Positions 2,697 to 63,677 of a stretch of 63,884 bases of DNA are shown piece after piece (position 1 is the first letter of the stretch; each line of letters starts with the position of its first letter). Origin of the DNA: a virus; IMG/VR virus record IMGVR_UViG_3300045988_069167. One strand, written 5' to 3'. The notes below the pieces were generated by a model. The model saw only the letters and a program-made list of their open reading frames with translations. It searched no databases and was not told the origin of the DNA. The position numbers and the translations under genes were made by a program.

Positions 2697-3842
2697 ATGA
2701 AAGCATCAGATATGTTACGTAACAACAATGGCTTGAAAACTACACAGAGTATACTCAACAAGCAACAGAGTGGTGTGGATGCTGCCCAAAAGGCGAGTCC
2801 TGAGCAGATGAATATGAACACCTCACAAGCTATGTTGCAAGGGAAAGGGGAACAACTTACTCCTCCCAAGGATGCGCACGAACAGGCTGCAAGGATGAAC
2901 CAGCAGACTGCTGAGGGTATGCCTAATGGCTCTATTCCTACAGACGAGCCTTCCGTTCCTATCGTGAAGAAGGATGAGCCTCAGCCTAAGCAACTATCTT
3001 ATGCGGACATGTATAAGATGCTGAATCCCGAGCGTGAGGAGACTGCCGAACAGAAGGCGAATAGAGAGAAGAAGGAACGCACAAAGGCTCGTATCGCTGC
3101 TCTGGGTGATGGTCTCCGTGCGCTCTCTAATATCTACTTTTCGACTAAGGGAGCCAAGGTGGTACACAATCCTGAGTCGGATATGACTCAGGTTGTGAAC
3201 AAACGCAAGGCTTATATGGATGCTCAGAGAGAAAGGAATCGGGCGGCATGGCTGGCTGGTTATCAGAGGGCGATGGCTCTTGATGAGGAAGCTCGAAAGA
3301 ACGACCTGACCCTTGCTGAACAAATCAGGTATCACGATATGCAGAACGACATCAACAAGGTGAAGGCTGACCAAGGGCAGCAGAGAATTGATCAGGGCAA
3401 CAGAAGACTTGACTTGTCGAAGTTGAAATATACCAATGATGCTGAGTATAAGGATAATCAGTTGAAGATTAAGAAGATGCTTGCAGATGGGCAGATTAGT
3501 CATTGGGCAGCTCAGGATGCGCTCGCTAGACTCCGTGAAGGAAGAATTGCTAACAAGGCTCAGAAATCTTCGGGCGGTAACAAAACTACTGCTGGATATT
3601 GGTATGAGTACTACGACCTGATGGACACTCCTGAGGGACAGAAGAAGATTAATGAACTTAAAAGAAGGTTGAGAATCAAGAATGTTACTCAGACTAACGT
3701 GAGATATATCATGGATAGATTGAAAGGTAGAAGTAGTTCTGCTGGAGGTGGTACTTCATCTGGTGGCGGCAAGCATACAACACATAAGGCTGGCGGTTCT
3801 TCTTCGTCTGGTGGCAAGAAGAAGACTGGCGTAAAATGGTAA
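2697..3842 (+). CDS. Putative internal virion / ejection protein (low complexity, basic, Gly/Ser-rich C-terminus)
   Basis: 381-aa ORF starting 4 nt after the previous stop. Q/K/R-rich, with a GGGTSSGGGKHTTHKAGGSSSSGGKKK tail. Confidence 0.6.
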   Translation: MKASDMLRNNNGLKTTQSILNKQQSGVDAAQKASPEQMNMNTSQAMLQGKGEQLTPPKDAHEQAARMNQQTAEGMPNGSIPTDEPSVPIVKKDEPQPKQLSYADMYKMLNPEREETAEQKANREKKERTKARIAALGDGLRALSNIYFSTKGAKVVHNPESDMTQVVNKRKAYMDAQRERNRAAWLAGYQRAMALDEEARKNDLTLAEQIRYHDMQNDINKVKADQGQQRIDQGNRRLDLSKLKYTNDAEYKDNQLKIKKMLADGQISHWAAQDALARLREGRIANKAQKSSGGNKTTAGYWYEYYDLMDTPEGQKKINELKRRLRIKNVTQTNVRYIMDRLKGRSSSAGGGTSSGGGKHTTHKAGGSSSSGGKKKTGVKW

Positions 3843-3872: not shown

Positions 3873-6800
3873 ATGGCAGAAAGACCATTATACACTTTAT
3901 ACAAGAATCTGAAAGCGCAGAACTATGATGTGCCTAACGATTACAATAAGTTTGAAAGTGCCCTGACAAGAGACGGAAAGAGCGGTGCAGATAACAGACA
4001 CGCTATCTATGAGAACTTGAAGGCTCAGAACTTTGATGTTCCTGATACCTATGAGCGTTTCTACTCTGCACTTTTTGAACCTCGTAGTAAGACTTCATCT
4101 AGAGCGAAGGGCGGTAGTGTTCCTATGAGTGCTGCTGACCGTGCTCGTTTCTCGGCTGGGGCAGCAGCTATCTCGGCTAGTGCTCAGCAGACAATGAACA
4201 ATGTCGGAAGATACAACAGACTAAAACAACGCAAGCAGAAGCAGCAAAAGGATTTCGGTCGTGTGAACTTGGGTACACATAAGACTGCTTTTGGTGGTGA
4301 TGCAAACAATGTGGTGAAGGATGATTTCGCTTACAATCCTGAGACTGGCAAGGCTGGCGCATACGTAACATCTGACAATGAGAATGTTTATTCTCAGAAT
4401 GATGCTGAGCAGAAACAGAACCTATTGGATAAGTATGGGGAAGAATGGAACAATGCAGTTGATATGGGTGTTGTTCCTTCTGAGTTGGATAAGGCTGACC
4501 CTGATTTGTCTGACACAGATGTTGCTATGCGACAAATGGAGAGAAGACAAGAGTGGCTTGACGAGAATCAAAATAGACGTTCTAAGGAATTGAATGAGTC
4601 TATGCACTTGCAGGGCTCTCCTTTTGTTGCGTCTGGTGGAGCAGTTGCACCTTCTTCGTTTAATACGGCTATAAGCAATGAGGCAAACCGCTTGTCTGAT
4701 GTAGAGTATGGTGCTTATAATACCGCCAAGGCTTATAATCAGATGTTGCGTACTACTCTGCTTCAGGAGTTGAAGGAACAAAAGCAGAGAAATGAAAATG
4801 CTGGTTGGTGGAAAGATAAGTGGAACGATGTTTCCAATTATTTCGGTGCGATGTTTAATACCATGCTTGACCCGAAGTTATATTCTCAGGGTATTATGGA
4901 CGCAGCTATAGCAAACAATTTGCTCCAAGTAAAGAAGGGCATGGAAGATGGAACAATCAAGAAAGGTTCCAATGCAGGAAATGCAGCACAAGCTATGCTT
5001 GGTGCTATTCAGCAGCAACAAGGAGAAGCTGCTAAACAGCAGCAGTATGGAACAAAGGCTTATCAGTATGGAGACATGAGCGGTCGCTCCTTGAAGTTTA
5101 TGGCAGATTTTGCGTTAAGCGGATGGAGAAATGTTATGACTACTGGTTTTACTAAGACAGGAGAAAAGGTTGGAGAGAAAATGGCTCTCGGTGCTCTTGG
5201 TAAATGGTTTACTAAGAATACTGGTCGTGTGCTTGGTGATATAGCTGGTAGTGCAGCATTAGCGGCAACCAATCAACTTGGCTCTACATATAATAATGTT
5301 ATAGAGCGTTATGTTGGAATGAACAACGAGAATGGTGGTGTGACCCAAGACAAGAATGGCGATTTGAAGTTCAATGAAGGTGTCAGTCTTGGTAGGGCTA
5401 TCAAGGATGGCTTTGGCTCAGCTACAATAGAGAACTTCTCGGAAATGTTCGGTGAATATCTACCAGGAGCATCTAAGTTGTTGTCAAAGTTAGGGCTTTC
5501 CAAGGTATCTTCTTTTTTTGAAAAGATAGGCAATAATGCTTACTATAAATGGTTGAGTAACGCAACTAACAAATCTGGAATCCAAGGTGTGATGGCTGAG
5601 ATTTCAGAAGAGGAGTTTGGTACTGCCCTTCATGCAGCTTGGGGTGATGGAGACGGAAGTTGGAGTGACTTCAATGTTTTCACGAATCCTGATGCCAGAG
5701 AAAAGCAGATTGATACTTGCCTTGGAATGTTCTATTCTGTTGGTTTCATGCAGGCTCCTCGAACTGCTGTTGGTGCTATAAATGCTGTGCGGTATTTCAA
5801 CATCAAACATCAGGTTACCAAGGCAGACAAGTTTGGTCAGATGATGTTCAATGATAAGTGGGAGGAAATCAAAGACAAGATTGATGTGACAACGAATGCA
5901 GACTTGACTAAAACAGTCTTGGAAGCAACTCGCTCAGACTCCATGACTGCCAAGCAGAAAGGTGCGGTCATCAATTATGCTATGTTCCTTAGCAAGCTTC
6001 GAGGATTCAATCAGGCATCAGATGCTAAGACAAAAGATAAGGTTGAAGAAGGTGAAACGGCTCCAACATTATCCAACGACCTTGATGATGCTTACACAGA
6101 AGGTCACAATGCTGATGATACAGATAAGCACAATATCCAGTTGGAGCAGAACGACAAGGCGAATGAACTTGCAGCCATGTTGCATATTACTCCAGAGCAG
6201 CTACATGATATGGCAGACGAAGACTTGGAAGCTATGAATGGTCAGGATGATAAACTTGATCAAGCTATCTACGATTACCAAGTATCTACTGCCAAGTATC
6301 AGGGTGTGATGGATGGAGCACAAGACGAAGTTGATATGGCAGCACATCAGGCGGCTATGGAAACGGATAACATGACTGACCTGAGTCGTGGAACCGTCCG
6401 TAAGGCAACCATTAAAGCAACTGGTGGCTTGGAAGACTACGAGGTGTATATCATAAGTGGTAATATCGCCACTCATGATGATGGCTCTATTGACGTGGGT
6501 AATAGTGATGATATGATTATCTACTATGACCCGACAACTGGCAGAAAGGAACACGCTGATGCCATGATGTTTGCTGACCTCATCGAAGAACTCCCTGCTG
6601 CTGACGTGAAGGCTCAGGCTATTAATGATGCAAAGGAAAATGCTATCAAGAAGATTGCTGGCATCATTGATGGAACCGTTGAAGTTGGCTCCCAGTTCTC
6701 TGTTACTGATGCAGATGGAACAGAGCATACTTATGAGGTGCTCGCTGATAATGGTGATGGTACTGCCATGATTACTATTGATGGTAATGTACCTACAGAA

Positions 6801-9800
6801 CTTGTTAAGGGCGAAAATGTACAGATACCATATTCGTTTGCAGACTTGCAGCAGATGAAAGATATGGAAGACCAGAAGAGAATGGAAGCTGCCAAGGCTG
6901 AGCGTGAGCAGATGGAGAAAGAACGTGCTGAACAGCAGACTCAGGAGACAGAAGAGACTCAACCTTCATTTGATTTCAATCAGATTCTCAATGATGATGG
7001 CAACGTGGTGCTTACTGATGTACTCGGCAAGGATGGTAATACAAAATATCCAAACTCCCAGTTGTTTCTTATCCGTGATTCAGGTGCAAAAGCTAAGGTG
7101 ATGGAATTGAAGAGTGATGGCACTCTCGTTCCTCATGCGGTAAACAAGAAAGATGTGAGAACTGCTACTACTATGTCGCTCGATGAGTATAAGCAAGCAT
7201 TTGCTGCCTCCTCAATGATAGAGGATAATAGTGGAGAGAATAGAGGTGAGATAGAGGTGGAAGCTCCAACAATAGAGGGAGAGACTGCTGCTCCTGAATC
7301 TGCTGAGACTCCTGCAACAGAACAGACTCCTGCTGCTCCTGCTATTACTCTTGAAGATGGAACTATCGTACCTATGCTGGAGGATGGCAATCCTGACTTC
7401 TCAAAGCTGACTGCCGAACAGACTGCTGAGTTGTATGACTCTCAGTTTGGTGAGGATGCTGATAACGTAATTAGCGGATGGGTATCTGATGCAAAGAAGG
7501 TACTCGACAAGGCTAACAACATGACCGTGAAGGGTAAGAACTTCGTGGAACAGAAGGCTGCAAAGGATGCCAAGGAGAAGGCTATTGCTGATGCTCAGGC
7601 GGCTTATGACTCTGCTATTGCTATCCGTGATGCTTATAATGAGCGACAACTTGCCAAGGTGGAAGATACTGCTGATGGCAGAAAGAACCTTATTGAGAAG
7701 GCAAGAAGAAAGTTCGCTCGCTTGAAGAGTGCGGTGAAGGATGATGCTGAGGCGGTTGCTCAAATCTATAAGGAGACGGTTAGCTCTCTCCTTCATCGTC
7801 TGTATGATGGTACAGGCATTGATGTGACAGATACCAATCCGCTTACTGCTGAGGAGTATGTAGCAAGTAATCTCAGTGCTCACACTCTCAACTATGAGGG
7901 GACAGAAACAAGCAAGGGTGTTAAGCAGGAGACTGGATTGAGCAGAGAAGACTTTGCCAAGACCCAGTTGCTCGCTGCTGATGGCAAGGGTACTACTATT
8001 GACAACCTTGTGCATAGCTTGTGGGAAAATCGCCCATCCAACCTTGATTCGCTCAACACTCAGGATATTCGTAACGCACTTATCGGTGTACTCACAAGTG
8101 GGTTCAAGGCATCGGAAGCAAGAAGTTATGTTGAGAACATTCGTATCGCTCAGGCGGAAAAACTCATTGAAGAAGAAAGGACTGCTGCTGAGAATGCTAC
8201 ATATTACGAGCAACAGAAAGCTAAGGAGGAGGAAGAAAAGAAAAAGGCAGAACTGGAGAAGAAAGCAGAAGAGGAGAACAAAAAGGCTAAGGAAGAGAAG
8301 ACCGAGGATAATGAGCAGACAAAGTTCCCTGAAAAACTAAAGGAGGGGAGCAAGGCTATTGAAGCTCCTGGGGATGCAACGGATGAGAAGCCTTTTGGTG
8401 AACAACTTGATGAGGCTAACCTTCCTTTCTCTGCTAAGGAGAACGGCAAGAAGCAGACAACATCTGAGCGTGCTGCTGACGTGGAGAAGAATAAGGTGGA
8501 TGATATGAAGGTCGTTGACAACATCGTTGGCGAGAAGACTCGCAAGGCTTTCGCTAGACTGGCTAAGATGATGGGTGCCAACATTCAGTGGCAGTACTCC
8601 GACAAGTTGGGCAACGGCTGGATTCAGGAGACCAAGGATGCTGATGGCAACGTTCATCGTACAATCTTTATCACTCTTGACTCTTCCATCACGGAAGGTG
8701 CCCAGTTCATCTTCGGTCACGAAATGACTCACCAAATCAAGAACCTGAACCCTGCTGCATACAATGAGTTGACTCAGCTTGTGCTTGATACCTATGGCTC
8801 TGACGCCTTCGACAAGGCGGTAGATGAGACCATGAAGAGATATTCCGATGCTGGATTCTCTGGACGTGCTAGAGAATACTATGCTGAGGAGGTTGTTGCT
8901 GATGCGGTAGGTGAAATGATTCGTGACCTCAACTTGGCTCACACTCTCGCTATGAAGATGTCTCATCCTCTGCTCGCTGCTATCCATGAGATATTGCAGA
9001 AGATTAAGTTGGCATTCTTTGGCACAGAGTATAGCGATGTAACCAAGAACATCATCCGCTCTATCGAACAAGCCTACGTGAAGACTGCCAAAGGTGAGGT
9101 TACAAACTCCGAGACTGGTGAAGATGTTTCCTTCTCTCTCCGTCAAAAGCCTGAACCTAAGAAGAAGGGCATCGGCTACAAGGTGTTCGTATTGAAGGAT
9201 GGCAAACTCTATCCACCTATGGTAGCGAACCCTAATGGTGCTGCTACTCCTGTTGGTGTGTGGCTCGATGCTGATGCGGCTCCTATTGCAGGAGAAAGCA
9301 AAACTGGCAGACCTCAGGTTAAGCAGGGCGGTAGCGGTAAGTTAGCCTATAGACCAGGCTGGCATCTTGGTGTAGTGCCTTACGCTATCCAGTTCAACCG
9401 CAAGGATGCTGAGGGCAACAAGACTCTCTTCCCTAAGAACTTCGTCTTCGCTGAGGTGGAGTATGCTGCTGATGTAGATTATCAGGAGGAAGCTCGCCAA
9501 GAGGGTATCAATCCATCGGGCAAGTATCAGCACTCACTCGCTGGCTTGAAACATTTGCCTACTGATGGCTATTATATGTATCGTACCAACCCGAACCCTG
9601 AGACTGACCCTTGGATGATTACTGGTGCGATGAAGGTGAACCGTATCTTGACTAGAGCAGAGCAAGCAGACTTGGTAAGCAATGCTGGTCGTGAACCTCA
9701 GCAGATTCAGGAGGGTGATATTGTTACTGATGATGTTGTGAACAGCATCAATCAGGAGATAGCTGATGCTCCTAAGTTCTCGTTGAAGGTGTACCATGGT

Positions 9801-12800
9801 AGTGGTTCTGACTTCACTGATTTTGACTTCGACCACATGGGCGATGGTGCTGGCTCACAAGTATTCGGTTGGGGTGGCTATGTTACTTCATCCAAGAAGA
9901 TTGGCAAGAGTTATGCTACTCTGATGGATAATGACCCTTCTAAGGCATATTTTCGCATTCAGCGTTCTAATGGTACAAGGTTCGCTAAGAAATATCCTAC
10001 TCTAGAATCATTCCTGCATGGTGATAAGCAAATAGCCATGAATGACAAGTTTACAGAGCAGGAAAAGATTGACTACTACAATGAAATGAAGAAGTTGGCT
10101 GAGCCATACCACAATCTCTATGAGGTGGATATACCTGATGATAATGGCAGCAACTATCTGGATTGGGATAAGCCTTTGAGTAAAAAGCAGCAGGATTCCA
10201 TTCGTGAAGGGTTGGAGCATCTTGGTGTAGGTATTAAGACGTTAGAAAGCAAAGGTCAGTCTTTAGAGAGAACTGGAGAAAATGTTTACAATAGTACTCT
10301 GTATATTGGGTTAACTGGAACAGAGTATGATTTGCCTGAAAAAACTAAAGGGATAAGCAAGTTCCTATCTTCTGTTGGCTTTACTGGCATTAAGTATAAG
10401 GCTGGACGTAACTTTGGTGGTGCTAAAAAGGGCGATACCAACTATGTTATCTTTGAGCCAGAGGACATGAAGATTACTGAGCATACCAAGTTCTCTATCA
10501 AGACTTATCACGGTTCCCAATCATCATTTGACCACTTTGACCACTCCTTCATGGGTAGTGGTGAGGGTGCTCAGGCTTACGGCTGGGGAACCTATGTGAC
10601 CGAGGTGGAAGGTATTGCCAAGGCTTATGCTAAGCAGAATGCGGCAAAGCGGAATACTGAATACTCTTCTGCAAAGTTTGAGTATGACACAGCCAAGTCT
10701 TCTTATAACTTCGCAAAAGGTACTTACGACTTCCGTATGCAAGATATAGACAAGTTGAATAATACACTAAAATGGGCTAAGGAACAACTTGTCAAAGCTA
10801 AGGAAAGCAATCGCAAGAATTGGATTGATGAGTTCGAGGCGAGAGTGGCTGACACAGAAAGAGCTTTGAAAGAGAACCAAGATAAGTTGCAGGATGAAAA
10901 GGCTGAAATGGGTAAGGCGAAGAAAGAAATGGATGAGGCAAAGAAACGTCTTGATGCCATTCCTGAGCCTGAGCGTAATCTTTACACCGTTGAGATTCCT
11001 GACGATACTGGTAGTAACTATATTGAATGGGACGGAAAAGCACCAGACGGATTGAAGGAGAAGGTTCTTGATAGATTGTACAATGAGCGCAGAGAGGACT
11101 TCGTGGATAAAATGCGCAAAGCAGGATTTAACGATGATCAGATTAAGGAAGAGGCTGATTACACCGTCAACAAGGAGGAAATGGCTGACACATACCTTAA
11201 GCATTCCGCTACTGGTGGTGGTCTGTATCGGGATTTGTCTTATTACTTAGGAGAACAGAAGAAAGCTAGCCTATTCCTTAAGGATATGGGGATTGATGGT
11301 GTGAAGGTTATCGCCAAGCGCAACGCTGGTGGCAACAAGGAAGGCAAGATGAACTATGTTATCTTTGATGAGAACAACGCTCAGATTATTAGTCATACTA
11401 AGTTCTCTCTCCGTTTGAAGTCTGCCATTGACGAGACAGAAACCAATCCATCTGATGCGCAGAAGGAGAGTGGCAACTATAAGAAAGGACACATCAAGTT
11501 CGGTGGCTATGATTACACAATAGAAAACCCAAAAGGTTCGACTCGCTCAGGCAAGGATGCTAATGGCAAAGAGTGGAAAGTAACCATGCACGATACCTAT
11601 GGCTATATCCGTGGTAAGTTTGGTAAGGATGGCGACCATCTGGATATGTTTATTAACGACAAGGCAGACCTTGATAATTGGAATGGTGATGTGTTTGTCG
11701 TTGACCAAGTGAATCCTGATGGCTCGTTTGATGAGCATAAGGTAATGTATGGCTATGACTCCATGGATGATGCCAAAAAGTCTTATCTCGCCAACTATAG
11801 CGATGGTTGGCAAGGTCTTGGAAATATTACTGGAGCAAGTAAGGATGAGTTCGATAAGTGGCTTGATACGAGCAATCGTAAGTTAAAGCCATTTGCAGAC
11901 TATGCTAATGTAAAGTTCTCGTTGAAGGATAATCAGGGGAATCCTCTGAATCAGGATGGTACTTTGAAACTAGATAAGATTAAGTCCGTTGATGAATTGA
12001 CGGATGAAGACTTCTTGCATCCTACTAGAAATGTAGAATTGCCTAGCTTGCCAAATAAGATTGCTGATGCTATTGGAACAGAAGGAAAGCCAGTTGTTAT
12101 CAAGAAGAACATCTTTGAGCGTAATTATATGAGACATAAAGATGTTACTCCTGAATTGAGTAAAACAATCTTTAAGTCTGCTTTATACAATACTGATTTG
12201 TATGGTCAGAATCAAAAGAAAACTAGACCATATAATTGGGTACTTATCAACACAAAGGATGAGAAGGGCAATAATCGCACAGTATTATTAGAGGTAAATC
12301 CTAATAAAGATAATGTGGAAATCGTACATTGGCACTTCGTTGACGAAAGAGGATTGGAAAAAATAAAGAAGCAAGCTGACCGTGAGGACGGGCAACTCCT
12401 CATACTGCCTTCCGATAAGGAAGAGGTCGGTGCCCTTTCCGACCCTACGGTCAACTTGTCTGCTGCAAAGATAGACAATTCTTCTGAAACTGCCAAGGAA
12501 AATGGAGAAAAGTTTTCATTGAAGGATGATGAATATCTTAAAGCGGTGGAAAATGGCGACATGGAAAAGGCTCAGAAAATGGTGAATGAAGCTGCCGAGG
12601 CTGCTGGCTATTCTACCGATTCCAGCTATCAGGGCACTTCTGCCTTCAATGGTTCTGCACCTTGGGGCAATGGCTACTTCTTGACCAAGGAAGAGCGCAA
12701 GGAGGCGTGGGATAATGATGAATATGACGGAGACCAAACTTTGGGTGATTATATCCATCGTGGTATAGATGCGATGAATCTCGATTTCATAGCATTAGAC

Positions 12801-15800
12801 CCTCGTAATTATCGTGCAGCTGACCCTATGCGCAAGGAGGCTATTGATAACGTGCGTAACGCTATCCAGAAGAAGAGTGAGACTATTACCATGTATAGAA
12901 GTGTTCCTTCTGATGTTAAGGAAGGTTCTTTCAGAAATGGTGATTGGGTTACTCCAAGTCGTGCTTATGCGGTTGATAATGCTAAGGTTCATGGTTGGGG
13001 TGATAACTTCAATATTATTGAACAGAAAGTTCCTGTTGATGAAATATGGTGGGATGGTAACGATATAGCTGAATGGGGCTATGGTCGTGAGGAAGACTAT
13101 GTTAATGACACAGACTTCGCATATAAGAACACCAAGAACAACCGAAAGTTGCTTGATGCCGTTACCTATGATGATAATGGCAATGTGATTCCTTTGTCTC
13201 AGAGATTCAATGAGAATAATGCAGATGTACGCTATTCTTTGAAAGATGAGAAGACTATGTTTGGTATGCACAACATCAGTCTTGATAAGCTTCGCAAGGC
13301 TATCAAGCAAGGTGGCTTTGCCGCACCTTCCATGGGTGTGATTGACTCTAAGAATGGAATATATTCTGGCTATGGAGAGATAACCTTGATACCGAAGGCA
13401 GAGAAGATAGCAAAGAGGACTGGAAAGAACATCGGCACTTATGCCGCAGATGCATGGACTCCTATCTATCCTCCAGTAGAAAAGAAGTTTGGTGGCAATG
13501 GTGGTGATGTCGCTTACGACGACATAGAATCCGTTCCAAAGGAAATGCAAAGTCTCACAAGAAATGCCATCAACAGCTTCATGGATGGTCGTGATACAAA
13601 CAGTTTAGCTTATCTCTATTTGCATGAGAAAGGAAAAGCTCCTGAGTTGGTTCATGTTGAAGGCAAATATCCAAAGGAACTTCATGATGAGGTGAAGGGT
13701 ATCTTGGGAAAATTAAATGGTATCTATAATACTACGGATGAGCAAAAGGAGAAACTCCTTGACTTGTTTATTCGTGAGGTGTATGATGGCAATAAGGAAG
13801 AGTTTGACAATGACATCAAGAAATTCATTAAGAAAGACGAGGAGTTTATCAAGAAAAGACCTAACTCCAATATTTCCAAGGACAAACAACTTGATGTTGA
13901 TTGGATGAAGGAACATGGCTATGACTATGGGGCTTTGTCTCGTTTCGTTGATGGCATACTGCGTGATGCGGAGACTTCTGGTAAGGTGGATGAGAATGCA
14001 ACGATGAAAGCTGCACAACAATACATTCAGGACAAAGGCATGAAGGAAGACTTCGATTCATGGAAAGGAAAACTCAATGACCGCTACCAAGTGGAGGAGG
14101 TAATCTTTGCAGGATATAAGGATGATGGCAACCGCAAGTATTTGCCTAACACCGTTGAGAATGCGGTGAAGGTAATGAAACAAGATGGCAAGAATGCTTC
14201 CGTTGGTTCGGCTTCTTTCAGTCATTTCGTTGCATCTATATTGAAACCGATGGGGACTCTTGACCAAATCAGAAAGAAGAAGGGTAATCTCACAGGAAAC
14301 TATGAGGACGTTGAGAAGTTCCAAGAGAAATGGCAACCTGTATATGATGAGTTGGCTGACAAGATGCAACCTGATGCAGAACCATTTGAAAGCTATGGCA
14401 TGGACAGATTGGAAGATGCTGCCACACAGAAGAATCCAAAGAAATATGCCAAGGATGAGTATGGTGTGGACTTGACAGACGAGGACATCGACAAGTTGAA
14501 TGAACTTATTGATGCTGTAAAAAATGAGAAGCCTTCCATCTACTTTGAAACCAAGTTTATGCGCCCATACGGTCTTGACGAGTTTGAGAAGGCTATCGTT
14601 CCAAACGATACTCCAAGCGATGTGATAGATGCCTTGAAGATGGCAGGTATTGATGTGAGCAGCTATGAGCGTGGAAATGCCGAGGATAGACAGAAGGTTA
14701 CTATGGATGCTATCAATAGTAGCGACAATATTCGTTTCTCTCTGAAATCTATGATGGAGAAACCTGAGGGATGGAAACAAGCCAACAAGAAGACTATTCA
14801 TATTGCAGAAGCTATTGAGCGTGACCCTAAGTTTTCTTTGAAGAATCTTGATGGAACTCTCATTAAGGCTGGAACCTACTTTAGTGGTGGCGGTCTTGTT
14901 GAGGAAGGCTTGAAGGGTATCATCGACCCAGTGGTGGCAGTGGAGTATGACGAGAAGATAAGCGGTGTATATCGCAATAACTTCGGGCAGCACATCGTTA
15001 CTGCTGATGTTCGTGACGTTGACCCTAAAGAGTTGGTCAAGCAGATAGATGGTGAGGTGGAGTACTTCCATGCCAGCCCAGTCTGCAAGAACTACTCTCA
15101 GGCGAAGAGTAACCACGCTGAGGTGGAACTTGACAAGGAGACTGCTGCTAGTACTGCCGAGTTCATCAATGCTATTAAGCCAAAGGTGGTGACCATTGAG
15201 AATGTGAAGGGGTATAAGGATTCGGAAGCGATGAATATTATCACGGATGCTCTGGATGCCAACGGATATACTTGGGATGCAGATGTGTATAACGCTGCTG
15301 ACTATGGCGGCTACACCAACCGAGAGAGATTGATTGTCCGTGCGGTTCGTGATGGTAAACTTCCTGACAAGCCAAAGAAGATGGCACACAAGAGCGGATG
15401 GTATGAAGCTGTGGCTGATATTATCCCTACCTTGACCGAGAAGAAGAATGGTGTGGCTCCTTGGATGGATATTCGCTTGAAGGCTGATGGCATTGACTGG
15501 AGAAACATTGACAAGCCATTATATGTGATGGGTAGTGCCTATGCTGACGGAAAGGTTCCTCATGCCTTCGCTGATGAACTGCTGCCAACACTCCGAACAA
15601 AGAGCGGTGATGTGATTGTGATGCCTGACGGTAAGGTATATCGTGCCATGGGCAGAGTGCTCGCAAGAGTATCAGGAGTGAGCGATGATTACAAGATGCC
15701 ATTCTCCGAGAACCTGAGCCATACCATCATCGGCAACGGAATACCTACCCAGTTGACAGAACACGTTATTGCTCCTCTGCTTACTGGTTCTGACCCTAAA

Positions 15801-18800
15801 TTCAGTCTTAAAAAGACAAATAACGTTAAAGATTCTCGTATTATTCCTACAGATGTGGATAAAAGAGTATCTTCGCAGATAGAAAAGAAGTATGACTCTG
15901 CTATCAAGGAAGTAATGAATAAGGTTGCAGAACGTGATAAGAGACTTGTATCTAATTATATTGATCAAGACTTATCTGATTTCTCCAAGATGCGCAGAGA
16001 GGATATTAATCAAGAACTGAAAAGCAATGAGAACTGGAGACGGAAAAACTTACGAGAAGAGAATCGTGAGGGAAGTACTTATGGAATTACAGATGCGAGA
16101 CATCGAATTACCGAAGCTACAGCAGAACGAGAACTGGAGTATAGAGACGTTAGAGCAAAGTATCTCTCAGAAACTTATGGATTGCAGGGAGGAAGACAAA
16201 CCTCTCTTGATATGGTTGATAGAGCGTTTGAAGATACACTTGGAAACGAAACAAATAGAGGAGAATTACGTGAACTCTATGGAAAAGCGAGGAAGATTTT
16301 AGTTCAGGTTGGTGCTGAGTTTGGTGGTGTTGACAATGCTAAGCAAGAAGGTGACTTGGGTTTTGCAGGTACAGATAGAGATATATCTCTATTCATTGAC
16401 ACAATGACCAGAACATCTACACCACAATCAGAGTTGGCTCACACTATCCTTCACGAAATGATTCATCAAGCAACAATTGGTTCTATCAATCTCGTAAAGA
16501 AAGGTATGGCTGATGGTATGCTTACACCTAAGCAGATTGAAGCTGTGAATACCATCATTAATACTTATGATGCGTATAAGGCTGACCGAAGACTGGTTTG
16601 GGAAGAAGACAACTATCGTGATTATGGAGGTAAGGATGAGTATGAGTTTGCTGCTGAAATGGCTGATGCTAAGCAGAGAAGAATACTCAGCATTCCTTAT
16701 GGAGAAAGAATCCTGAATGCAGCTAATGAGTTGAAGAGGGTTGGTGATATTTCTTTATGGCAAGCTATCAAGAATGCTCTGAGAAGGCTCTTTGAGGTCT
16801 CAGACAAGTCAAAGATGGATAAGGCTCTCAGTGACATCATGGATGATTTCAATAAGAATATTGATTATATTTCCATGAACAATATCGAAGAGACGGATTT
16901 CGGTCTGAATGGTAATACTCGATTCTCCTTGCGCTATGACAAGTTTGAGCATGACCTGAACCAGTGGAAGAAGGATAATAATCTGCCTAAGGATGCCCAG
17001 CGACCAACCATCCCACAACGCAACGCTGGTGAGAGTGCCGTTGACTTCCTGAGGAGAGTGGACGAGTACCGCAAGCAGATGGCTCTGTGGAAGACTGCTC
17101 CAACCTACGAGCAGCATCTTCTGAGTGATGATACTGCCCTTGGAGAGTTCAACCGAGAGTTGCAGCGTGGTTCTGTGCTCAAACGTATCGCCTTCCAAGA
17201 TAGTATGCTGGCTATCCGTAAGGCTCAGGAAGCTATCATGAAGGAAGTGGGTGTTGACCGCCTGAACATGGCTGAGGATGCCTATACTGCCGAGAACCGA
17301 AGCCATGGCAAGGGCAAGAACGAGTTTGAGGAATACAACAACGAGTTCTTGCAGCCATTGAGAAAGGCTTATCATCAGATGAAGAAGGTGCTGGGTGATA
17401 GCTATGACAATGTACGTATCTACATGATGGCTAAGCATGGCTTGGAGCGTGATGCTCAGATGGCTTTCAAGAAGTCTTTGGAAGCTGACTATGAAGATGT
17501 GGCTCAGAGAAGTGCGGCATACAGGGCTTACAAGGGCGACATGAACCGAATGGGCAATGATAGCGGCTTTGAACTTGGCTACATAGACTTCAATACTTGG
17601 AGACAGAAAGATGATGCACTTAGGGCGAAATACTCTCCATCTTACATGAATTATCGCTATGATAAGGATGGAACCGCTTTTGATTATTCTGGCTTATCGG
17701 CTCTCTTCGGTGGCTCGGACTTTGAGGAAGCTGCAAGCAAACTGGTAAGGGATATTGAGAGTAGTCATGTTGTTGAGGTGCAAGACCTCTGGAATGCTAC
17801 GAATGCAGCTACCAAGAAGATTCTCCGTGATGGCTATAAGGCTGGCATGATGAGCAAAGATACTTATCAGTATGTGCGAGATATGTATAGCCATTATATT
17901 CCTCTCCGTGGCTGGGATGGCACTACTGCCGACCAAGTATGGGACTATATTGGTGGTGGAAAGGGTGCGTTCAATCAGATCTTGAAAACGGCACATGGAC
18001 GAACCTCTATCGCTGACGACCCTATCGCCTACATCGAGAATATGGCAGAAAGTGGAATCCTGCTGAACAACAAGAACTGGGTGAAGCAACATCTGATGCT
18101 CTTGGCTCAGAATCATCCTACCTCTCTTCTTACCCTGAGCAAGGCTTGGTACGTGAAGAGTGTGGATGATAACGGCAACGAGGAGTGGATTCCTGCTACA
18201 CCTCAGATTACTTCTCAGATGGATAGCAATCAGGTGAAGGCTGCAATTGATGCTTTCGAGCAGAAGATGGAGCAGATGGCCCAGACTGGCGATGCTACTC
18301 AGAAGAGAGACGGATTGAACATAGCCTATCCTCAGACTCACAGCGAGGAGAGAGAACATGAGGTAAGAGTGATGAAGGATGGCGAGGAGTACGTTATCTA
18401 TGTGAATGGTGACCCTCAGTTGGCTCAGGCGATGAACAATACAAGAGCACACCGAGTAAGAGAGATTCAGAGCGGCAAACTGGATAGGGCTGCTGCTTGG
18501 TTGGGCAGAAAGATGGCTGCTGCCTATACCAGTCTTTCACCTCTCTTCATTCCTTCCAACTACTTCCGAGACCTGACCATGACCCTTGCATCTACAGCTA
18601 TTCGTGAGGATGCAAAGTACAACTATCTGCTCAGAAAGAATCTCGCAACCTCTTGGAATCTCGGATTCATGCTGAAAGATTATCAGAACGGAAAGTTAAG
18701 GGAGAAGGTAAGCAACGGAAACGCTACTCCAAAAGAACAGATGTTCTATGACTTCATGATGAATGGTGGAGAGACTGGCTTTGTCTCTTCGCTTGATGTG

Positions 18801-20516
18801 GAAGACTTGAAGAAGAAATTCAAGAATGACTTGAAGGATTTGGATAGATGGAAGGCGAACCCAGTAAAGGTAGGGCACACCATCATGGATGGCATTGAGT
18901 TCCTGAACAGAATGATTGAGGATAGTAACCGATTTGCGGTTTACATGACCTCTATTCAGTATGGACGTTCCATTGATGAGGCTGTGAATGATGCCAAGGA
19001 CGTGACCCTGAACTTCAATCGCAAGGGTACTGGCGAATATGGCTGGCAGATGATTAGAAACCTCTATCTCTTCATCAACCCAGCAGTACAGAGTTTACAG
19101 ACCTTGGGTGCGCTTGTCAAACATCATCCTTTCAAGTTCACGGCTGTTACTGCATCATGGTTGGCGAGTGGTGTGCTGGTTCCTATCGTTAACGCTGCCC
19201 TGATGAGTCTGTTGGGCGGTGATGATGATAAGGATAAGTACTGGCAGTTCTCCAAGTGGGATAGACGGAACAACCTGATTATGTGGGTTCCTTTCACTCA
19301 TGAGTATGTGAAGATTCCGCTTGCTCAGGAGTTCCGTGCTTTCTACGGATTGGGAGATATGATTGCATCCAAGATGATGGGTGGCGAGTTGGCTGAGGAG
19401 AGTTGGAGTCAGTATGCAGAAGACTTGCTCGGTCAGGTAGTTGATATGCTTCCGCTCGACCCTACTGGATATGATGGCAATATTGCGGTCAGTCTGATGC
19501 CGAATGCTATTCGCCCAGTCTTTGAGTTGGCTTTCAATGTTGACTTCACTGGTAAGCCATTATTCAAGGAGACAGAGTATAATAAGTATGACCCTAACTT
19601 TACCAAGGCATACGTGGGCACTCCTGATTGGCTGGTACGTGCATCAAGGATGGTTAACTCAATCGGAAACGACTATCCTGATGTACAGCAGAATAGTATT
19701 GATGCTTTCGGTGACCCAAGATATAATCTGAATAACCCAGCGGTGGTTGATCACGTCTTGTCTTCCTATCTTGGTGGTGCATACACCATGGGTAGTCAGG
19801 TGCTTGGTTTGCTTACTAAGTCACTCAACGACCCGAAGGAAATCAAGGTGGCTGATATTCCATTATTCAGCAAGTTCGTCAGCAATCCTGATGATAGACC
19901 AGTTACTAAGAAACAAGGTGATGAGTTCTGGAATATGAAGGAGAACCACGACCGTGCAGCCAATACCCTGAGCAAGTTGAAGAAACAAGCCAAGGTGGAT
20001 GGCGATTACTCGATGCTGGAGCGGTTCTACGGATCTGAGGAGTATAAGCAGTACAAGCAGGATGATGTGAAGGTGAAGAAGTATGAGGAAGACAAGAAGA
20101 AGGAACGTGCTGAGGAGAGTGGAGAGGAGTATAGACCTCACAAGTTGAATGCCGAGGATATATATAAGGCTCACGCTACTCCGAAGGATGATTTCGAGGA
20201 CTTGAAGCTGAAACAACTCTACACTAAGTTGAACGGATATAAGTCTGCATACGACCTCTTGGTTGATACGGCTTCTAGTCAGAGCGATGGCTACTACAAC
20301 ACCAACAAGGCTGCCATTGATGCCATTGACGAGATTTCCCTTGATAAGCAGGAGATTTCCGAGTTAAAGAAAGGCTTCTTGGACGATGGCAAGGATGCCT
20401 ACAACGCTGAGGACATGAAACAGATTCGTGAACTGAGAAAGAAGATTCTTTCCGTGCTGGAGAGGGCTAACAAGGTAGTTGTGGCTAACCAGAAGGCGAA
20501 GGCTAAGAAAAAATAA
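3873..20516 (+). CDS. Giant multidomain polyvalent-type protein (5,547 aa), probably virion-packaged and ejected
   Basis: One uninterrupted 16,644-nt ORF. Contains HEMTH and HEMIH zincin motifs, a duplicated YHGS...GWG.Y module and a pyrophosphatase-like IENPKGS...DGDHLDMF motif. The C5-MTase motifs are complete (FSGGG, SPVCKNYS, ENV, TNRERL, GNGIP). There are 11 [KRS][FY]S[LI][KR] junction motifs and a C-terminal TM segment. Confidence 0.9.
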   Translation: MAERPLYTLYKNLKAQNYDVPNDYNKFESALTRDGKSGADNRHAIYENLKAQNFDVPDTYERFYSALFEPRSKTSSRAKGGSVPMSAADRARFSAGAAAISASAQQTMNNVGRYNRLKQRKQKQQKDFGRVNLGTHKTAFGGDANNVVKDDFAYNPETGKAGAYVTSDNENVYSQNDAEQKQNLLDKYGEEWNNAVDMGVVPSELDKADPDLSDTDVAMRQMERRQEWLDENQNRRSKELNESMHLQGSPFVASGGAVAPSSFNTAISNEANRLSDVEYGAYNTAKAYNQMLRTTLLQELKEQKQRNENAGWWKDKWNDVSNYFGAMFNTMLDPKLYSQGIMDAAIANNLLQVKKGMEDGTIKKGSNAGNAAQAMLGAIQQQQGEAAKQQQYGTKAYQYGDMSGRSLKFMADFALSGWRNVMTTGFTKTGEKVGEKMALGALGKWFTKNTGRVLGDIAGSAALAATNQLGSTYNNVIERYVGMNNENGGVTQDKNGDLKFNEGVSLGRAIKDGFGSATIENFSEMFGEYLPGASKLLSKLGLSKVSSFFEKIGNNAYYKWLSNATNKSGIQGVMAEISEEEFGTALHAAWGDGDGSWSDFNVFTNPDAREKQIDTCLGMFYSVGFMQAPRTAVGAINAVRYFNIKHQVTKADKFGQMMFNDKWEEIKDKIDVTTNADLTKTVLEATRSDSMTAKQKGAVINYAMFLSKLRGFNQASDAKTKDKVEEGETAPTLSNDLDDAYTEGHNADDTDKHNIQLEQNDKANELAAMLHITPEQLHDMADEDLEAMNGQDDKLDQAIYDYQVSTAKYQGVMDGAQDEVDMAAHQAAMETDNMTDLSRGTVRKATIKATGGLEDYEVYIISGNIATHDDGSIDVGNSDDMIIYYDPTTGRKEHADAMMFADLIEELPAADVKAQAINDAKENAIKKIAGIIDGTVEVGSQFSVTDADGTEHTYEVLADNGDGTAMITIDGNVPTELVKGENVQIPYSFADLQQMKDMEDQKRMEAAKAEREQMEKERAEQQTQETEETQPSFDFNQILNDDGNVVLTDVLGKDGNTKYPNSQLFLIRDSGAKAKVMELKSDGTLVPHAVNKKDVRTATTMSLDEYKQAFAASSMIEDNSGENRGEIEVEAPTIEGETAAPESAETPATEQTPAAPAITLEDGTIVPMLEDGNPDFSKLTAEQTAELYDSQFGEDADNVISGWVSDAKKVLDKANNMTVKGKNFVEQKAAKDAKEKAIADAQAAYDSAIAIRDAYNERQLAKVEDTADGRKNLIEKARRKFARLKSAVKDDAEAVAQIYKETVSSLLHRLYDGTGIDVTDTNPLTAEEYVASNLSAHTLNYEGTETSKGVKQETGLSREDFAKTQLLAADGKGTTIDNLVHSLWENRPSNLDSLNTQDIRNALIGVLTSGFKASEARSYVENIRIAQAEKLIEEERTAAENATYYEQQKAKEEEEKKKAELEKKAEEENKKAKEEKTEDNEQTKFPEKLKEGSKAIEAPGDATDEKPFGEQLDEANLPFSAKENGKKQTTSERAADVEKNKVDDMKVVDNIVGEKTRKAFARLAKMMGANIQWQYSDKLGNGWIQETKDADGNVHRTIFITLDSSITEGAQFIFGHEMTHQIKNLNPAAYNELTQLVLDTYGSDAFDKAVDETMKRYSDAGFSGRAREYYAEEVVADAVGEMIRDLNLAHTLAMKMSHPLLAAIHEILQKIKLAFFGTEYSDVTKNIIRSIEQAYVKTAKGEVTNSETGEDVSFSLRQKPEPKKKGIGYKVFVLKDGKLYPPMVANPNGAATPVGVWLDADAAPIAGESKTGRPQVKQGGSGKLAYRPGWHLGVVPYAIQFNRKDAEGNKTLFPKNFVFAEVEYAADVDYQEEARQEGINPSGKYQHSLAGLKHLPTDGYYMYRTNPNPETDPWMITGAMKVNRILTRAEQADLVSNAGREPQQIQEGDIVTDDVVNSINQEIADAPKFSLKVYHGSGSDFTDFDFDHMGDGAGSQVFGWGGYVTSSKKIGKSYATLMDNDPSKAYFRIQRSNGTRFAKKYPTLESFLHGDKQIAMNDKFTEQEKIDYYNEMKKLAEPYHNLYEVDIPDDNGSNYLDWDKPLSKKQQDSIREGLEHLGVGIKTLESKGQSLERTGENVYNSTLYIGLTGTEYDLPEKTKGISKFLSSVGFTGIKYKAGRNFGGAKKGDTNYVIFEPEDMKITEHTKFSIKTYHGSQSSFDHFDHSFMGSGEGAQAYGWGTYVTEVEGIAKAYAKQNAAKRNTEYSSAKFEYDTAKSSYNFAKGTYDFRMQDIDKLNNTLKWAKEQLVKAKESNRKNWIDEFEARVADTERALKENQDKLQDEKAEMGKAKKEMDEAKKRLDAIPEPERNLYTVEIPDDTGSNYIEWDGKAPDGLKEKVLDRLYNERREDFVDKMRKAGFNDDQIKEEADYTVNKEEMADTYLKHSATGGGLYRDLSYYLGEQKKASLFLKDMGIDGVKVIAKRNAGGNKEGKMNYVIFDENNAQIISHTKFSLRLKSAIDETETNPSDAQKESGNYKKGHIKFGGYDYTIENPKGSTRSGKDANGKEWKVTMHDTYGYIRGKFGKDGDHLDMFINDKADLDNWNGDVFVVDQVNPDGSFDEHKVMYGYDSMDDAKKSYLANYSDGWQGLGNITGASKDEFDKWLDTSNRKLKPFADYANVKFSLKDNQGNPLNQDGTLKLDKIKSVDELTDEDFLHPTRNVELPSLPNKIADAIGTEGKPVVIKKNIFERNYMRHKDVTPELSKTIFKSALYNTDLYGQNQKKTRPYNWVLINTKDEKGNNRTVLLEVNPNKDNVEIVHWHFVDERGLEKIKKQADREDGQLLILPSDKEEVGALSDPTVNLSAAKIDNSSETAKENGEKFSLKDDEYLKAVENGDMEKAQKMVNEAAEAAGYSTDSSYQGTSAFNGSAPWGNGYFLTKEERKEAWDNDEYDGDQTLGDYIHRGIDAMNLDFIALDPRNYRAADPMRKEAIDNVRNAIQKKSETITMYRSVPSDVKEGSFRNGDWVTPSRAYAVDNAKVHGWGDNFNIIEQKVPVDEIWWDGNDIAEWGYGREEDYVNDTDFAYKNTKNNRKLLDAVTYDDNGNVIPLSQRFNENNADVRYSLKDEKTMFGMHNISLDKLRKAIKQGGFAAPSMGVIDSKNGIYSGYGEITLIPKAEKIAKRTGKNIGTYAADAWTPIYPPVEKKFGGNGGDVAYDDIESVPKEMQSLTRNAINSFMDGRDTNSLAYLYLHEKGKAPELVHVEGKYPKELHDEVKGILGKLNGIYNTTDEQKEKLLDLFIREVYDGNKEEFDNDIKKFIKKDEEFIKKRPNSNISKDKQLDVDWMKEHGYDYGALSRFVDGILRDAETSGKVDENATMKAAQQYIQDKGMKEDFDSWKGKLNDRYQVEEVIFAGYKDDGNRKYLPNTVENAVKVMKQDGKNASVGSASFSHFVASILKPMGTLDQIRKKKGNLTGNYEDVEKFQEKWQPVYDELADKMQPDAEPFESYGMDRLEDAATQKNPKKYAKDEYGVDLTDEDIDKLNELIDAVKNEKPSIYFETKFMRPYGLDEFEKAIVPNDTPSDVIDALKMAGIDVSSYERGNAEDRQKVTMDAINSSDNIRFSLKSMMEKPEGWKQANKKTIHIAEAIERDPKFSLKNLDGTLIKAGTYFSGGGLVEEGLKGIIDPVVAVEYDEKISGVYRNNFGQHIVTADVRDVDPKELVKQIDGEVEYFHASPVCKNYSQAKSNHAEVELDKETAASTAEFINAIKPKVVTIENVKGYKDSEAMNIITDALDANGYTWDADVYNAADYGGYTNRERLIVRAVRDGKLPDKPKKMAHKSGWYEAVADIIPTLTEKKNGVAPWMDIRLKADGIDWRNIDKPLYVMGSAYADGKVPHAFADELLPTLRTKSGDVIVMPDGKVYRAMGRVLARVSGVSDDYKMPFSENLSHTIIGNGIPTQLTEHVIAPLLTGSDPKFSLKKTNNVKDSRIIPTDVDKRVSSQIEKKYDSAIKEVMNKVAERDKRLVSNYIDQDLSDFSKMRREDINQELKSNENWRRKNLREENREGSTYGITDARHRITEATAERELEYRDVRAKYLSETYGLQGGRQTSLDMVDRAFEDTLGNETNRGELRELYGKARKILVQVGAEFGGVDNAKQEGDLGFAGTDRDISLFIDTMTRTSTPQSELAHTILHEMIHQATIGSINLVKKGMADGMLTPKQIEAVNTIINTYDAYKADRRLVWEEDNYRDYGGKDEYEFAAEMADAKQRRILSIPYGERILNAANELKRVGDISLWQAIKNALRRLFEVSDKSKMDKALSDIMDDFNKNIDYISMNNIEETDFGLNGNTRFSLRYDKFEHDLNQWKKDNNLPKDAQRPTIPQRNAGESAVDFLRRVDEYRKQMALWKTAPTYEQHLLSDDTALGEFNRELQRGSVLKRIAFQDSMLAIRKAQEAIMKEVGVDRLNMAEDAYTAENRSHGKGKNEFEEYNNEFLQPLRKAYHQMKKVLGDSYDNVRIYMMAKHGLERDAQMAFKKSLEADYEDVAQRSAAYRAYKGDMNRMGNDSGFELGYIDFNTWRQKDDALRAKYSPSYMNYRYDKDGTAFDYSGLSALFGGSDFEEAASKLVRDIESSHVVEVQDLWNATNAATKKILRDGYKAGMMSKDTYQYVRDMYSHYIPLRGWDGTTADQVWDYIGGGKGAFNQILKTAHGRTSIADDPIAYIENMAESGILLNNKNWVKQHLMLLAQNHPTSLLTLSKAWYVKSVDDNGNEEWIPATPQITSQMDSNQVKAAIDAFEQKMEQMAQTGDATQKRDGLNIAYPQTHSEEREHEVRVMKDGEEYVIYVNGDPQLAQAMNNTRAHRVREIQSGKLDRAAAWLGRKMAAAYTSLSPLFIPSNYFRDLTMTLASTAIREDAKYNYLLRKNLATSWNLGFMLKDYQNGKLREKVSNGNATPKEQMFYDFMMNGGETGFVSSLDVEDLKKKFKNDLKDLDRWKANPVKVGHTIMDGIEFLNRMIEDSNRFAVYMTSIQYGRSIDEAVNDAKDVTLNFNRKGTGEYGWQMIRNLYLFINPAVQSLQTLGALVKHHPFKFTAVTASWLASGVLVPIVNAALMSLLGGDDDKDKYWQFSKWDRRNNLIMWVPFTHEYVKIPLAQEFRAFYGLGDMIASKMMGGELAEESWSQYAEDLLGQVVDMLPLDPTGYDGNIAVSLMPNAIRPVFELAFNVDFTGKPLFKETEYNKYDPNFTKAYVGTPDWLVRASRMVNSIGNDYPDVQQNSIDAFGDPRYNLNNPAVVDHVLSSYLGGAYTMGSQVLGLLTKSLNDPKEIKVADIPLFSKFVSNPDDRPVTKKQGDEFWNMKENHDRAANTLSKLKKQAKVDGDYSMLERFYGSEEYKQYKQDDVKVKKYEEDKKKERAEESGEEYRPHKLNAEDIYKAHATPKDDFEDLKLKQLYTKLNGYKSAYDLLVDTASSQSDGYYNTNKAAIDAIDEISLDKQEISELKKGFLDDGKDAYNAEDMKQIRELRKKILSVLERANKVVVANQKAKAKKK
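8580..8935 (+). other. Domain of giant ORF: zincin-like metallopeptidase module 1
   Basis: FIFGHEMTHQIKN, with HEMTH at 8718-8732 (aa 1616-1620). A downstream acidic helix reads YYAEEVVADAVGEM. Confidence 0.6.
9774..11399 (+). other. Domain of giant ORF: tandem duplicated module (aa 1968-2205 and 2206-2509)
   Basis: Both copies start KFS[LI]K.YHGS..F..FD...MG.G.G.Q..GWG.Y.T. Both contain NLY.V[ED]IPDD.GSNY..WD and end NYVIF[ED]......HTKFS. The second copy carries a coiled-coil insertion. Confidence 0.8.
11415..11912 (+). other. Domain of giant ORF: inorganic-pyrophosphatase-like module
   Basis: GNYKKGHIKFGGYDYTIENPKGSTRSG...YGYIRGKFGKDGDHLDMFIND. Matches 6 of the 7 positions of the family I PPase D-x-D-P-x-D-x signature, preceded by an E.PKG-like strand. 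Confidence 0.5.
14844..15797 (+). other. Domain of giant ORF: complete DNA (cytosine-5) methyltransferase
   Basis: Motif I YFSGGG, IV SPVCKNYS (catalytic Cys at 15084-15086), VI ENVKG, VIII TNRERLIV, IX RVLARVSGVSDDY, X GNGIPTQL. Bounded by KFSLK motifs at 14829 and 15798. Confidence 0.8.
16320..16740 (+). other. Domain of giant ORF: zincin-like metallopeptidase module 2
   Basis: AHTILHEMIHQATIGS, with HEMIH at 16452-16466 (aa 4194-4198). Confidence 0.6.
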
Positions 20517-63634: not shown

Positions 63635-63657
63635 AAGCCTACAATTTAAATCTGCCG

Positions 63658-63665
63658 CAAAGATA
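63658..63665 (-). promoter_or_regulatory. -7 box TATCTTTG (minus strand) for int
   Basis: caaagata on the + strand, 24 nt upstream of the ATG at 63634. Confidence 0.5.
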
Positions 63666-63677
63666 AGGAATATTTTT

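Follow-up and report, generated by a model that had tools for sequence, protein, structure and literature searches.

The window analysed here is the whole 63,884-nucleotide stretch of IMG/VR virus record IMGVR_UViG_3300045988_069167, which by its gene content resembles an almost complete temperate phage, probably of Segatella/Prevotella. It contains a giant open reading frame (ORF) of 16.6 kb (3873..20516, + strand), encoding a polyvalent protein of 5,547 amino acids (aa) in which a pentapeptide, [KR][FY]S[LI][KR], marks the joints of a central array of effector cassettes. Comparison with 120 close homologues showed that cassettes come, go and are exchanged at breakpoints that lie within the motif, and that each effector cassette is flanked by it. 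We propose that the motif is a sequence-specific endoproteolytic site, a reading to which we assign a probability of roughly 45%. Proteolysis is favoured by four features of the motif: selection at the level of the peptide, a linker position at the cassette joints, P-side and P′-side residues that move with the adjacent units, and concerted, lineage-specific flavours. Polyprotein cleavage sites show these very features, which would hardly be expected of a linker that is merely passive, of a recombination box in the DNA or of a target found in all hosts.

The extent of the giant ORF was supported by the ORF list, by Pfam matches and by coverage with the 120 homologues. In its product, the central cassette array occupies aa 1753-4354 and is enclosed by conserved regions at the N-terminus (aa 1-1752) and at the C-terminus (aa 4355-5547). 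All eleven pentapeptides listed in an earlier note on this DNA were found in frame at their positions, and they span only aa 1753 to 4350. The first copy, SFSLR (9129..9143, + strand as are all copies; aa 1753), lies in a low-confidence linker behind a zincin-like domain. KFSLK (9774..9788; aa 1968) stands directly before a cassette matching ART-PolyVal (aa ~1971-2072), and KFSIK (10488..10502; aa 2206) directly before a second cassette related to ADP-ribosyltransferases (ARTs), matching DUF3990 (aa 2210-2280); both scores are just under the Pfam cut-off. The next copies, KFSLR (11400..11414; aa 2510) and KFSLK (11913..11927; aa 2681), precede the InPase (aa 2528-2664) and LPD13 (aa 2694-2835) cassettes, respectively, and KFSLK at 12510..12524 (aa 2880) precedes a 235-aa cassette without assigned function. 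RYSLK (13230..13244; aa 3120) opens a 496-aa cassette with PBECR5 (aa 3125-3335), RFSLK (14733..14747; aa 3621) a mini-cassette of 27 aa, and KFSLK (14829..14843; aa 3653) the C5 DNA methylase cassette (DNA_methylase, aa 3670-3966). KFSLK at 15798..15812 (aa 3976), whose Ser codon is AGT, comes before a rare cassette with an HEMIH sequence, and the last copy, RFSLR (16920..16934; aa 4350), opens the conserved C-terminal region holding LPD38 (aa 5121-5331). The InPase, LPD13, PBECR5, DNA_methylase and LPD38 matches are all over the cut-off.

The copies sit 0-17 residues ahead of a Pfam domain start and a few residues past the end of the previous domain. The methylase is bracketed by the copies at aa 3653 and 3976, as the earlier note had it, and its last helix ends in ...HVIAPLL, which is followed by TGSDP-KFSLK. 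Likewise, the duplicated modules described there correspond to a pair of ART-like paralogues at aa 1973-2205 and aa 2211-2509, each with a copy on both sides. The dipeptides reported to precede several copies were also present, HT before those at aa 2206 and 2510 and DP before those at aa 3653 and 3976. The flanks show a mild preference, [DEN][DGN][TPIV]-motif-[DN], with polar residues upstream. The four copies that were covered by AlphaFold2 (AF2) models are all in short polar stretches with a confidence score (pLDDT) below 50. The 27-aa mini-cassette, SMMEKPEGWKQANKKAIHIAEAIERDP (14748-14828; aa 3626-3652), lies between two copies, and the 121 proteins together contain it 86 times. Cutting at both flanking sites would set it free as a peptide.

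The motif is strongly enriched in the giant ORF. The pattern [KR][FY]S[LI][KR] was observed ten times against 0.05 expected from composition (about 200-fold), with a maximum of two in 5,000 shuffles; when SFSLR is included, 11 copies stand against 0.07 expected. Looser patterns yielded no further copies in the giant ORF, so that the motif is sharp and not the tip of a fuzzy family. A six-frame scan of the window found no copy in any other real ORF, including those of the capsid and the portal. The codons used vary among the eleven copies, with Ser encoded by TCT, TCG, TCA, TCC or AGT and Leu by TTG, CTC, CTG or CTT. Moreover, 21 copies from the window gene and one homologous gene comprise 17 distinct 15-mers, third codon positions carry only 0.2-0.5 bit, and the longest near-invariant DNA run across copies is about 5-8 nucleotides. 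Since the codons vary and the third positions are almost uninformative, the motif is conserved as a peptide and not as DNA. A DNA-level repeat or recombination box was rejected on account of this codon variation.

The prediction that homologues keep the motif at equivalent boundaries was borne out. All 120 close homologues carry 4-10 copies (mean 6.8 versus 0.036 expected) and have the same layout, with a motif-free N-terminal region of ~1,750 aa, a variable centre and a motif-free C-terminal region of ~1,200 aa. BLAST high-scoring segment pairs break off exactly at the motif. Among the non-redundant junctions, 32 upstream tails and 32 downstream starts form 83 distinct pairs that meet exactly at the motif. 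For instance, one tail (...KPFADYAKV) is joined through it to six different cassettes, and one cassette start is joined to up to eight tails. As these flanks are unrelated, the repetition of the motif is not a by-product of tandem duplication. When the proteins were cut at the motif in silico, the segments fell into 43 families, of which about 15 recur, and the 121 proteins combine these into 87 architectures. Furthermore, the residue at position 1 of the motif covaries with the unit upstream (z 10.2 versus 4.3) and that at position 5 with the unit downstream (z 11.7 versus 4.6), and all of the 96 unique junctions have Ser at position 3. Remnants from which a domain has been deleted retain both flanking motifs, as seen in KFSLK-VYHGSGADFTEHT-KFSLR, where the start of an ART cassette is joined to its end, and in the methylase remnant KFSLK-DGSLIKAGGNT-RFSLR, also start joined to end. 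Degenerate joints occur as well among these homologues (P0001-P0120), e.g. KFSQAQSVAEP-RYSLK.

More distant relatives came from HMMER, run exhaustively with the PBECR5 cassette as query, which gave 150 representatives of 33-98% identity, many of them 4,000-7,500 aa long. The strict motif occurs at least three times in about 16 of these and is absent from 111 of 147. Related peptides are nevertheless present at homologous junctions, and each protein keeps to a single flavour at all of its own junctions: xFSKE in P0244, [IVT]RFS.. in P0259 (7,091 aa) and [VIT]RFS[VIA] in P0153 (nine copies each), TMFKT / IRFKT in P0170 (about nine), [IT]RFR[TA] in P0142 (seven), RYSLK in P0254 (five) and [IV]RFR[ES] in gp68 of phage BF1-TP2 (four). 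Two of the gp68 copies, in DIRFRE and GVRFRS, align residue for residue with the window copies at aa 3120 and 3621, respectively. One module tail, VIPLSERFNxxxxD, runs into RYSLK, RYSVK, IRFSIV, IRFRTT, IRFSIK or RFSKE according to the lineage, and the flavour matches the other junctions of that protein. Such a concerted change at all junctions is expected if the motif co-evolves with one reader. The core common to the lineages is (h)-[RK]-[FY]-[SRK]-x. The loose tripeptide [KR][FY][SR] is enriched only 1.2-fold in the distant relatives, which is why we base the claim across lineages on the 4-5-mers specific to each of them. The Pfam PBECR5 model itself seems to take in the motif at its N-terminal edge, where profile position 4 aligns with the F of IRFRE in BF1-TP2. 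In Bcep22 gp75, by contrast, no clear junction motif was seen to recur, and none was found near the N-terminus of the stand-alone InPase encoded by Vibrio phage 150E35-1. On this sampling, the junction feature is a property of the polyvalent subclass that combines an LPD38 C-terminus with ART, InPase and PBECR cassettes.

We envisage that the giant chain would be packaged into the virion and ejected as a single polypeptide. Cutting at the motifs, either after packaging or after ejection, would then release separate enzymes, among them the ARTs, a pyrophosphatase, the RNase-like PBECR5 and the C5 methylase. In this lineage the best candidate for the cutter is the zincin domain with HExxH, whose end lies shortly ahead of the first copy, and the flavour of each lineage would track its own protease. 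Zincin-mediated processing of polyvalent proteins has been proposed before, without a defined site (PMC5512222). The earlier note, which offered a cleavage site or a docking strand as explanations, counted about 11 effectors if the motif is cut; eleven cuts would in fact give 12 pieces, namely N-terminal and C-terminal pieces of 1,752 aa and 1,193 aa, nine cassettes of 166-496 aa and the 27-aa peptide.

The candidate protease is a zincin-like metallopeptidase domain at aa ~1540-1745 (8490..9107, + strand), with HEMTH at aa 1616-1620 (8718-8732), which ends about 14 residues before the first copy. Across 24 sequences that share 19-92% identity, no variation was seen at G1615, H1616, E1617, H1620, E1673, D1677 or G1680. 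The AF2 model of the domain (pLDDT 76) has a zincin-like topology with a helix, a three-stranded sheet, the HExxH helix and a closing helix at fragment residues 185-205, past which SFSLR lies in a disordered linker. In nearly all members of this domain type a junction peptide (RFSLK, RLSLR, RNSLP, KHSLI or RYSIK) is found 110-130 residues past HExxH. One divergent variant reads AQKFSLRLNHP in place of AHTLAMKMSHP, so that TLAMK gives way to an additional KFSLR in the helical part that closes the domain at its C-terminus (window aa ~1700, nt ~8970); this extra copy could be a self-cleavage or a pseudo-substrate site. Among the representatives of at least 3,000 aa, the zincin type is present in all ten proteins with at least three strict copies, and at least three strict copies occur in 0 of 68 proteins without it (Fisher test, 7e-8). 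We consider it possible rather than likely that the conserved upstream zincin, although the best candidate in this lineage, does the cutting.

Several observations weigh against cleavage at the motif, or against the zincin as its agent. The motif had been said to mark every module boundary, which does not hold, since the 1,752 aa ahead of the array and the 1,193 aa behind it contain none and the acidic low-complexity linker that precedes the zincin domain (aa ~1460-1535) also lacks it. As in known polyproteins, a uniform short motif stands at the unit junctions, but in the central array only. Access may be restricted at some copies, which run straight into the opening strand of the domain behind them (KFSLK-VYHGSG). 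The AF2 model of the InPase-LPD13 fragment was poor overall (pLDDT 52, from a shallow alignment), so that disorder of the copies in it is only suggestive. AF2 does not place the first copy in the cleft of the zincin, a Foldseek search with the zincin model returned no significant PDB neighbour, and the domain has no Pfam match. The association of zincin type and flavour is confounded by common descent. P0259, P0142, P0223 and BF1-TP2 gp68 all have junction motifs but no HExxH, and no Pfam peptidase was detected in gp68 and P0142, the two of these relatives that were scanned. A zincin acting in cis therefore cannot be the general reader. Of the two zincin proteases previously ascribed to the ORF, the one at aa 1616 is supported by its invariant G-HExxH...E(x3)D pattern and its modelled topology; the one at aa 4194, in the HEMIH cassette, has only a sub-threshold SprT-like match and is found in 3 of 120 homologues. 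Moreover, N4 vRNAP, ArdC and TraC1 carry zincin domains and are yet delivered uncleaved (PMC5512222). Taken together, the cleavage-site reading is supported in part, by the homologues and by an apparently catalytically intact zincin directly upstream of the array, but neither the occurrence at every boundary nor a general role for the protein's own zincin stood.

The serious rival to proteolysis, though a rather unlikely one, is that the motif is an uncleaved linear binding site in the linkers, recognised by an Hsp70/DnaK-type chaperone that ratchets or refolds the entering chain, or by the portal, core or ejectosome. Its basic-hydrophobic-basic pattern resembles peptides that chaperones such as DnaK bind. 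The copies lie in low-confidence linkers, and junction motifs occur in proteins without HExxH. In addition, the protein would have to thread a narrow channel unfolded (PMC8402733) and is depleted of Cys, and a gene for a DnaJ-like chaperone, gp67, lies directly downstream of the giant gene of BF1-TP2 (L001 19531-20163). However, a degenerate binder like DnaK would not impose an invariant Ser, nor one flavour per protein that differs between lineages of related hosts, and no partner was identified. It is improbable that the motif is only a recombination joint, kept by cassette exchange at shared sequence and functionless in the mature protein. The mosaic breakpoints inside the motif and the 87 architectures are what such a joint would give, but the DNA is poorly conserved, with both Ser codon families in use and conservation at the amino acid level, and the domain-deleted remnants keep both of their flanking motifs. 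An equally improbable reading takes the motif as a passive structural linker, an amphipathic capping β-strand that packs on neighbouring domains or on the next bead. Hydrophobic and polar residues do alternate in V-K-F-S-L-K, the motif abuts β1 of the ART domains, and in a low-confidence model DSSP assigned a short strand at the first of three copies and two strand residues at the second. Yet the adjoining domains have unrelated folds in the 32 x 32 contexts, the 27-aa peptide and remnants of 13 aa are also flanked by the motif, every modelled copy falls below pLDDT 50, and a flavour per lineage is left unexplained.

Two further readings invoke a known partner for such a peptide. In one, the array would target or poison the host replisome by binding the β-clamp through APIM motifs; ten of the 11 copies fit [KR][FYW][LIVAST][LIVA][KR], and RFSLK is itself an APIM peptide. 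RFSLK peptides inhibited growth and mutagenesis of E. coli, which was attributed to binding of the β-clamp, measured directly for the APIM peptide RWLVK (PMC7261172). An APIM is a clamp-binding motif and does not mark domain junctions, so that the position at each cassette joint is unexplained. Furthermore, the same junctions in relatives read IRFRE, xFSKE or TMFKT and are thus off-pattern despite a highly conserved clamp; the identity of RFSLK with an APIM peptide is probably a coincidence, and we regard clamp targeting as highly unlikely. Scarcely more credible is cutting of the motif by a prohead protease of capsid maturation, as at the sites of T4 gp21 or phiKZ gp175 in internal head proteins. 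T4-like and phiKZ-like phages do have short consensus motifs at which their internal head proteins are cleaved (PMC10052503 and PMC5694885). In the window, no match to a protease family was detected in about 30 ORFs scanned, a scan of limited sensitivity that agrees with the earlier remark that no separate prohead protease is visible. The motif is also absent from the capsid, the portal and all other ORFs, and the gp14-like context described below suggests assembly of the T7 type. T7 is not known to have a prohead protease. Self-cleavage of the HF/S type (Nup98/PIDD-like) was rejected, given that the sequences ahead of the copies share no relationship and probably have no fold, and that the RFR flavours lack a nucleophile. 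A PKC-like phosphosite was unsupported, with no kinase found, as was an ADP-ribosyl acceptor site, as many architectures have no ART cassettes.

The genes upstream of the giant gene bear on how its product would reach the host. At 2031..2693 (+ strand) lies a gene for a T7 gp14-like internal virion protein of 220 aa without Cys (Pfam T7_gp14, E 2.3e-6, 28.1 bits at a cut-off of 27, full-length match), putatively the first gene of an ejection-protein operon. It is followed by a gene of 381 aa at the place of T7 gp15 (2697..3842, + strand), whose product has no Cys and no family match and which is a conserved neighbour in L002 and L003. A gp14-like gene followed by larger core genes, as for the internal core proteins of T7, is thus present in the window, and the order gp14-like gene, ~390-aa gene and giant gene is repeated in the homologous prophage L002, which adjoins host genes. 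The giant protein contains only two Cys in 5,547 aa, one at aa 616 and the other at aa 3738 in the PC motif of the methylase. The other phage ORFs (n = 11) average 13.7 Cys per 1,000 aa, and homologues of the giant protein are Cys-poor as well (0.6-1.0 per 1,000 aa). This depletion is consistent with proteins that cross the envelope unfolded. Virion proteomics of podoviruses detected the LPD38/DarB-like giant phi24B gp47 (bioRxiv 10.64898/2026.04.10.717836) and the related JC1 gp69 (PMC9144972). Based on the gp14-like gene, the Cys depletion and the proteomics of these related giants, we consider that the giant protein is probably packaged in the virion and ejected into the host. In L002, the prophage encoding P0045, a single in-frame TAG (22859-22861) splits the giant gene into ORFs of 4,286 aa and 1,287 aa in the same frame, and could be a nonsense mutation, a read-through site or a case of TAG recoding. 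We looked for gene fission at the motif, and this split falls inside an ART cassette instead.

By its domain content, the giant ORF is a polyvalent protein sensu Iyer et al. 2017 (PMC5512222). It carries more than the minimum of two conflict or effector domains (LPD, PBECR or ART-PolyVal type) in one chain, namely ART-PolyVal, InPase, LPD13, PBECR5, LPD38 and a methylase, besides a candidate HExxH metallopeptidase of the zincin-like kind that is common but not obligatory in the class, and it is encoded by a phage among late and virion genes (large terminase, major capsid protein, portal, integrase and the gp14-like gene). That paper names no such site, whereas a sharp repeated junction peptide with lineage flavours is defined here. 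A PDB sequence search with its N-terminal and C-terminal regions gave no match. At 5,547 aa it is longer than the 5,007-aa gp27 of phage Pavtok, which in 2021 was termed the longest known phage protein (PMC8402733), and the metagenomic relatives P0259 and P0241 reach 7,091 and 7,483 aa between them.

The nearest cultured relative, BF1-TP2 gp68 (PQ571263), shares ART-PolyVal, InPase, PBECR5 and LPD38 at 43-60% identity, and the two proteins can be aligned across their junctions. It differs in using [IV]RFR[ES] in place of [KR][FY]S[LI][KR] and in having no HExxH. MARTX and the large clostridial toxins carry a swappable effector array in one chain, which is cut at short inter-domain sites by the toxin's own InsP6-activated cysteine protease, an enzyme that cuts after Leu. 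The mosaic array in a single chain is similar in principle, with cleavage here putative; a cysteine protease domain like that of MARTX is not found in a chain with two Cys, the candidate is a zincin, and delivery would be by phage ejection. The picornavirus 3C and potyvirus NIa polyproteins likewise have a uniform short junction motif whose P-side goes with the upstream unit and whose P′-side goes with the downstream unit, and which covaries by lineage. In contrast, the protein studied here belongs to a tailed phage with double-stranded DNA, only its central third is punctuated, and the protease would be of another class. The gp14-like gene upstream recalls the T7 gp14/gp15/gp16 core, in which gp16 has no cassette array. 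Among other giants, phi24B gp47 and JC1 gp69 are alike as LPD38/DarB-like proteins found in podovirus virions; Bcep22 gp75 differs in lacking the repeated motif, and N4 vRNAP departs from the proteolytic reading in being reported as uncleaved (PMC5512222).

The remaining genes of the window fit a temperate phage. Besides the large terminase, major capsid protein and portal, the ORFs include a GH19 lysin, and a group of temperate-phage genes on the minus strand (integrase, Rha/Ant, ERF and PD-(D/E)XK nuclease; 62471-63703, 57915-58790 and 55950-56567). A second C5 cytosine DNA methylase gene (51658-52416, minus strand; Pfam E 3e-52) stands alone in the early region, separate from the cassette in the giant protein. 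No nucleotide match to known phages was found, and the nearest cultured phages are the Bacteroides phages BF1-TP2, BS-TP4 and BKO1-TP3. A prophage segment with 95% identity to the giant gene was located in Segatella copri HDE04, whose chromosome is complete (NZ_CP152346.1, ~1.484-1.490 Mb), which points to the host and to a cultured source. Metagenome-assembled genomes of Prevotella also hold a 95% identical segment.

In the literature on the processing of polyvalent proteins we found no defined cleavage site, and the full text of PMC5512222 names no junction motif. A search for the pentapeptides in the phage context turned up the APIM paper alone. The protein is a new member of a class already known, while within the literature searched its junction motif, with the various flavours, seems not to have been described. 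As weapons of phages and plasmids, polyvalent proteins rank with the largest and the most widespread, and their processing has been conjectural since 2017. A sharp junction peptide provides exact sites to mutate and to seek in mass spectra, which makes the old processing hypothesis testable, and the cultured Segatella copri HDE04 with its prophage segment makes such a test feasible. The peptide is also a parsing rule by which thousands of unannotated giants can be divided into cassettes, several of them without a known family. More broadly, and as a tentative extension, tailed phages with double-stranded DNA of gut Bacteroidales and many other lineages may deliver true polyproteins, in which up to about ten anti-host enzymes travel in one capsid-packed chain, joined by a lineage-specific junction code and read by a dedicated, co-evolving protease. 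The junction peptide offers a rationale for the free exchange of cassettes without breaking the protein; such a code, if true, makes the cassettes plug-compatible and would explain their extreme combinatorial shuffling.

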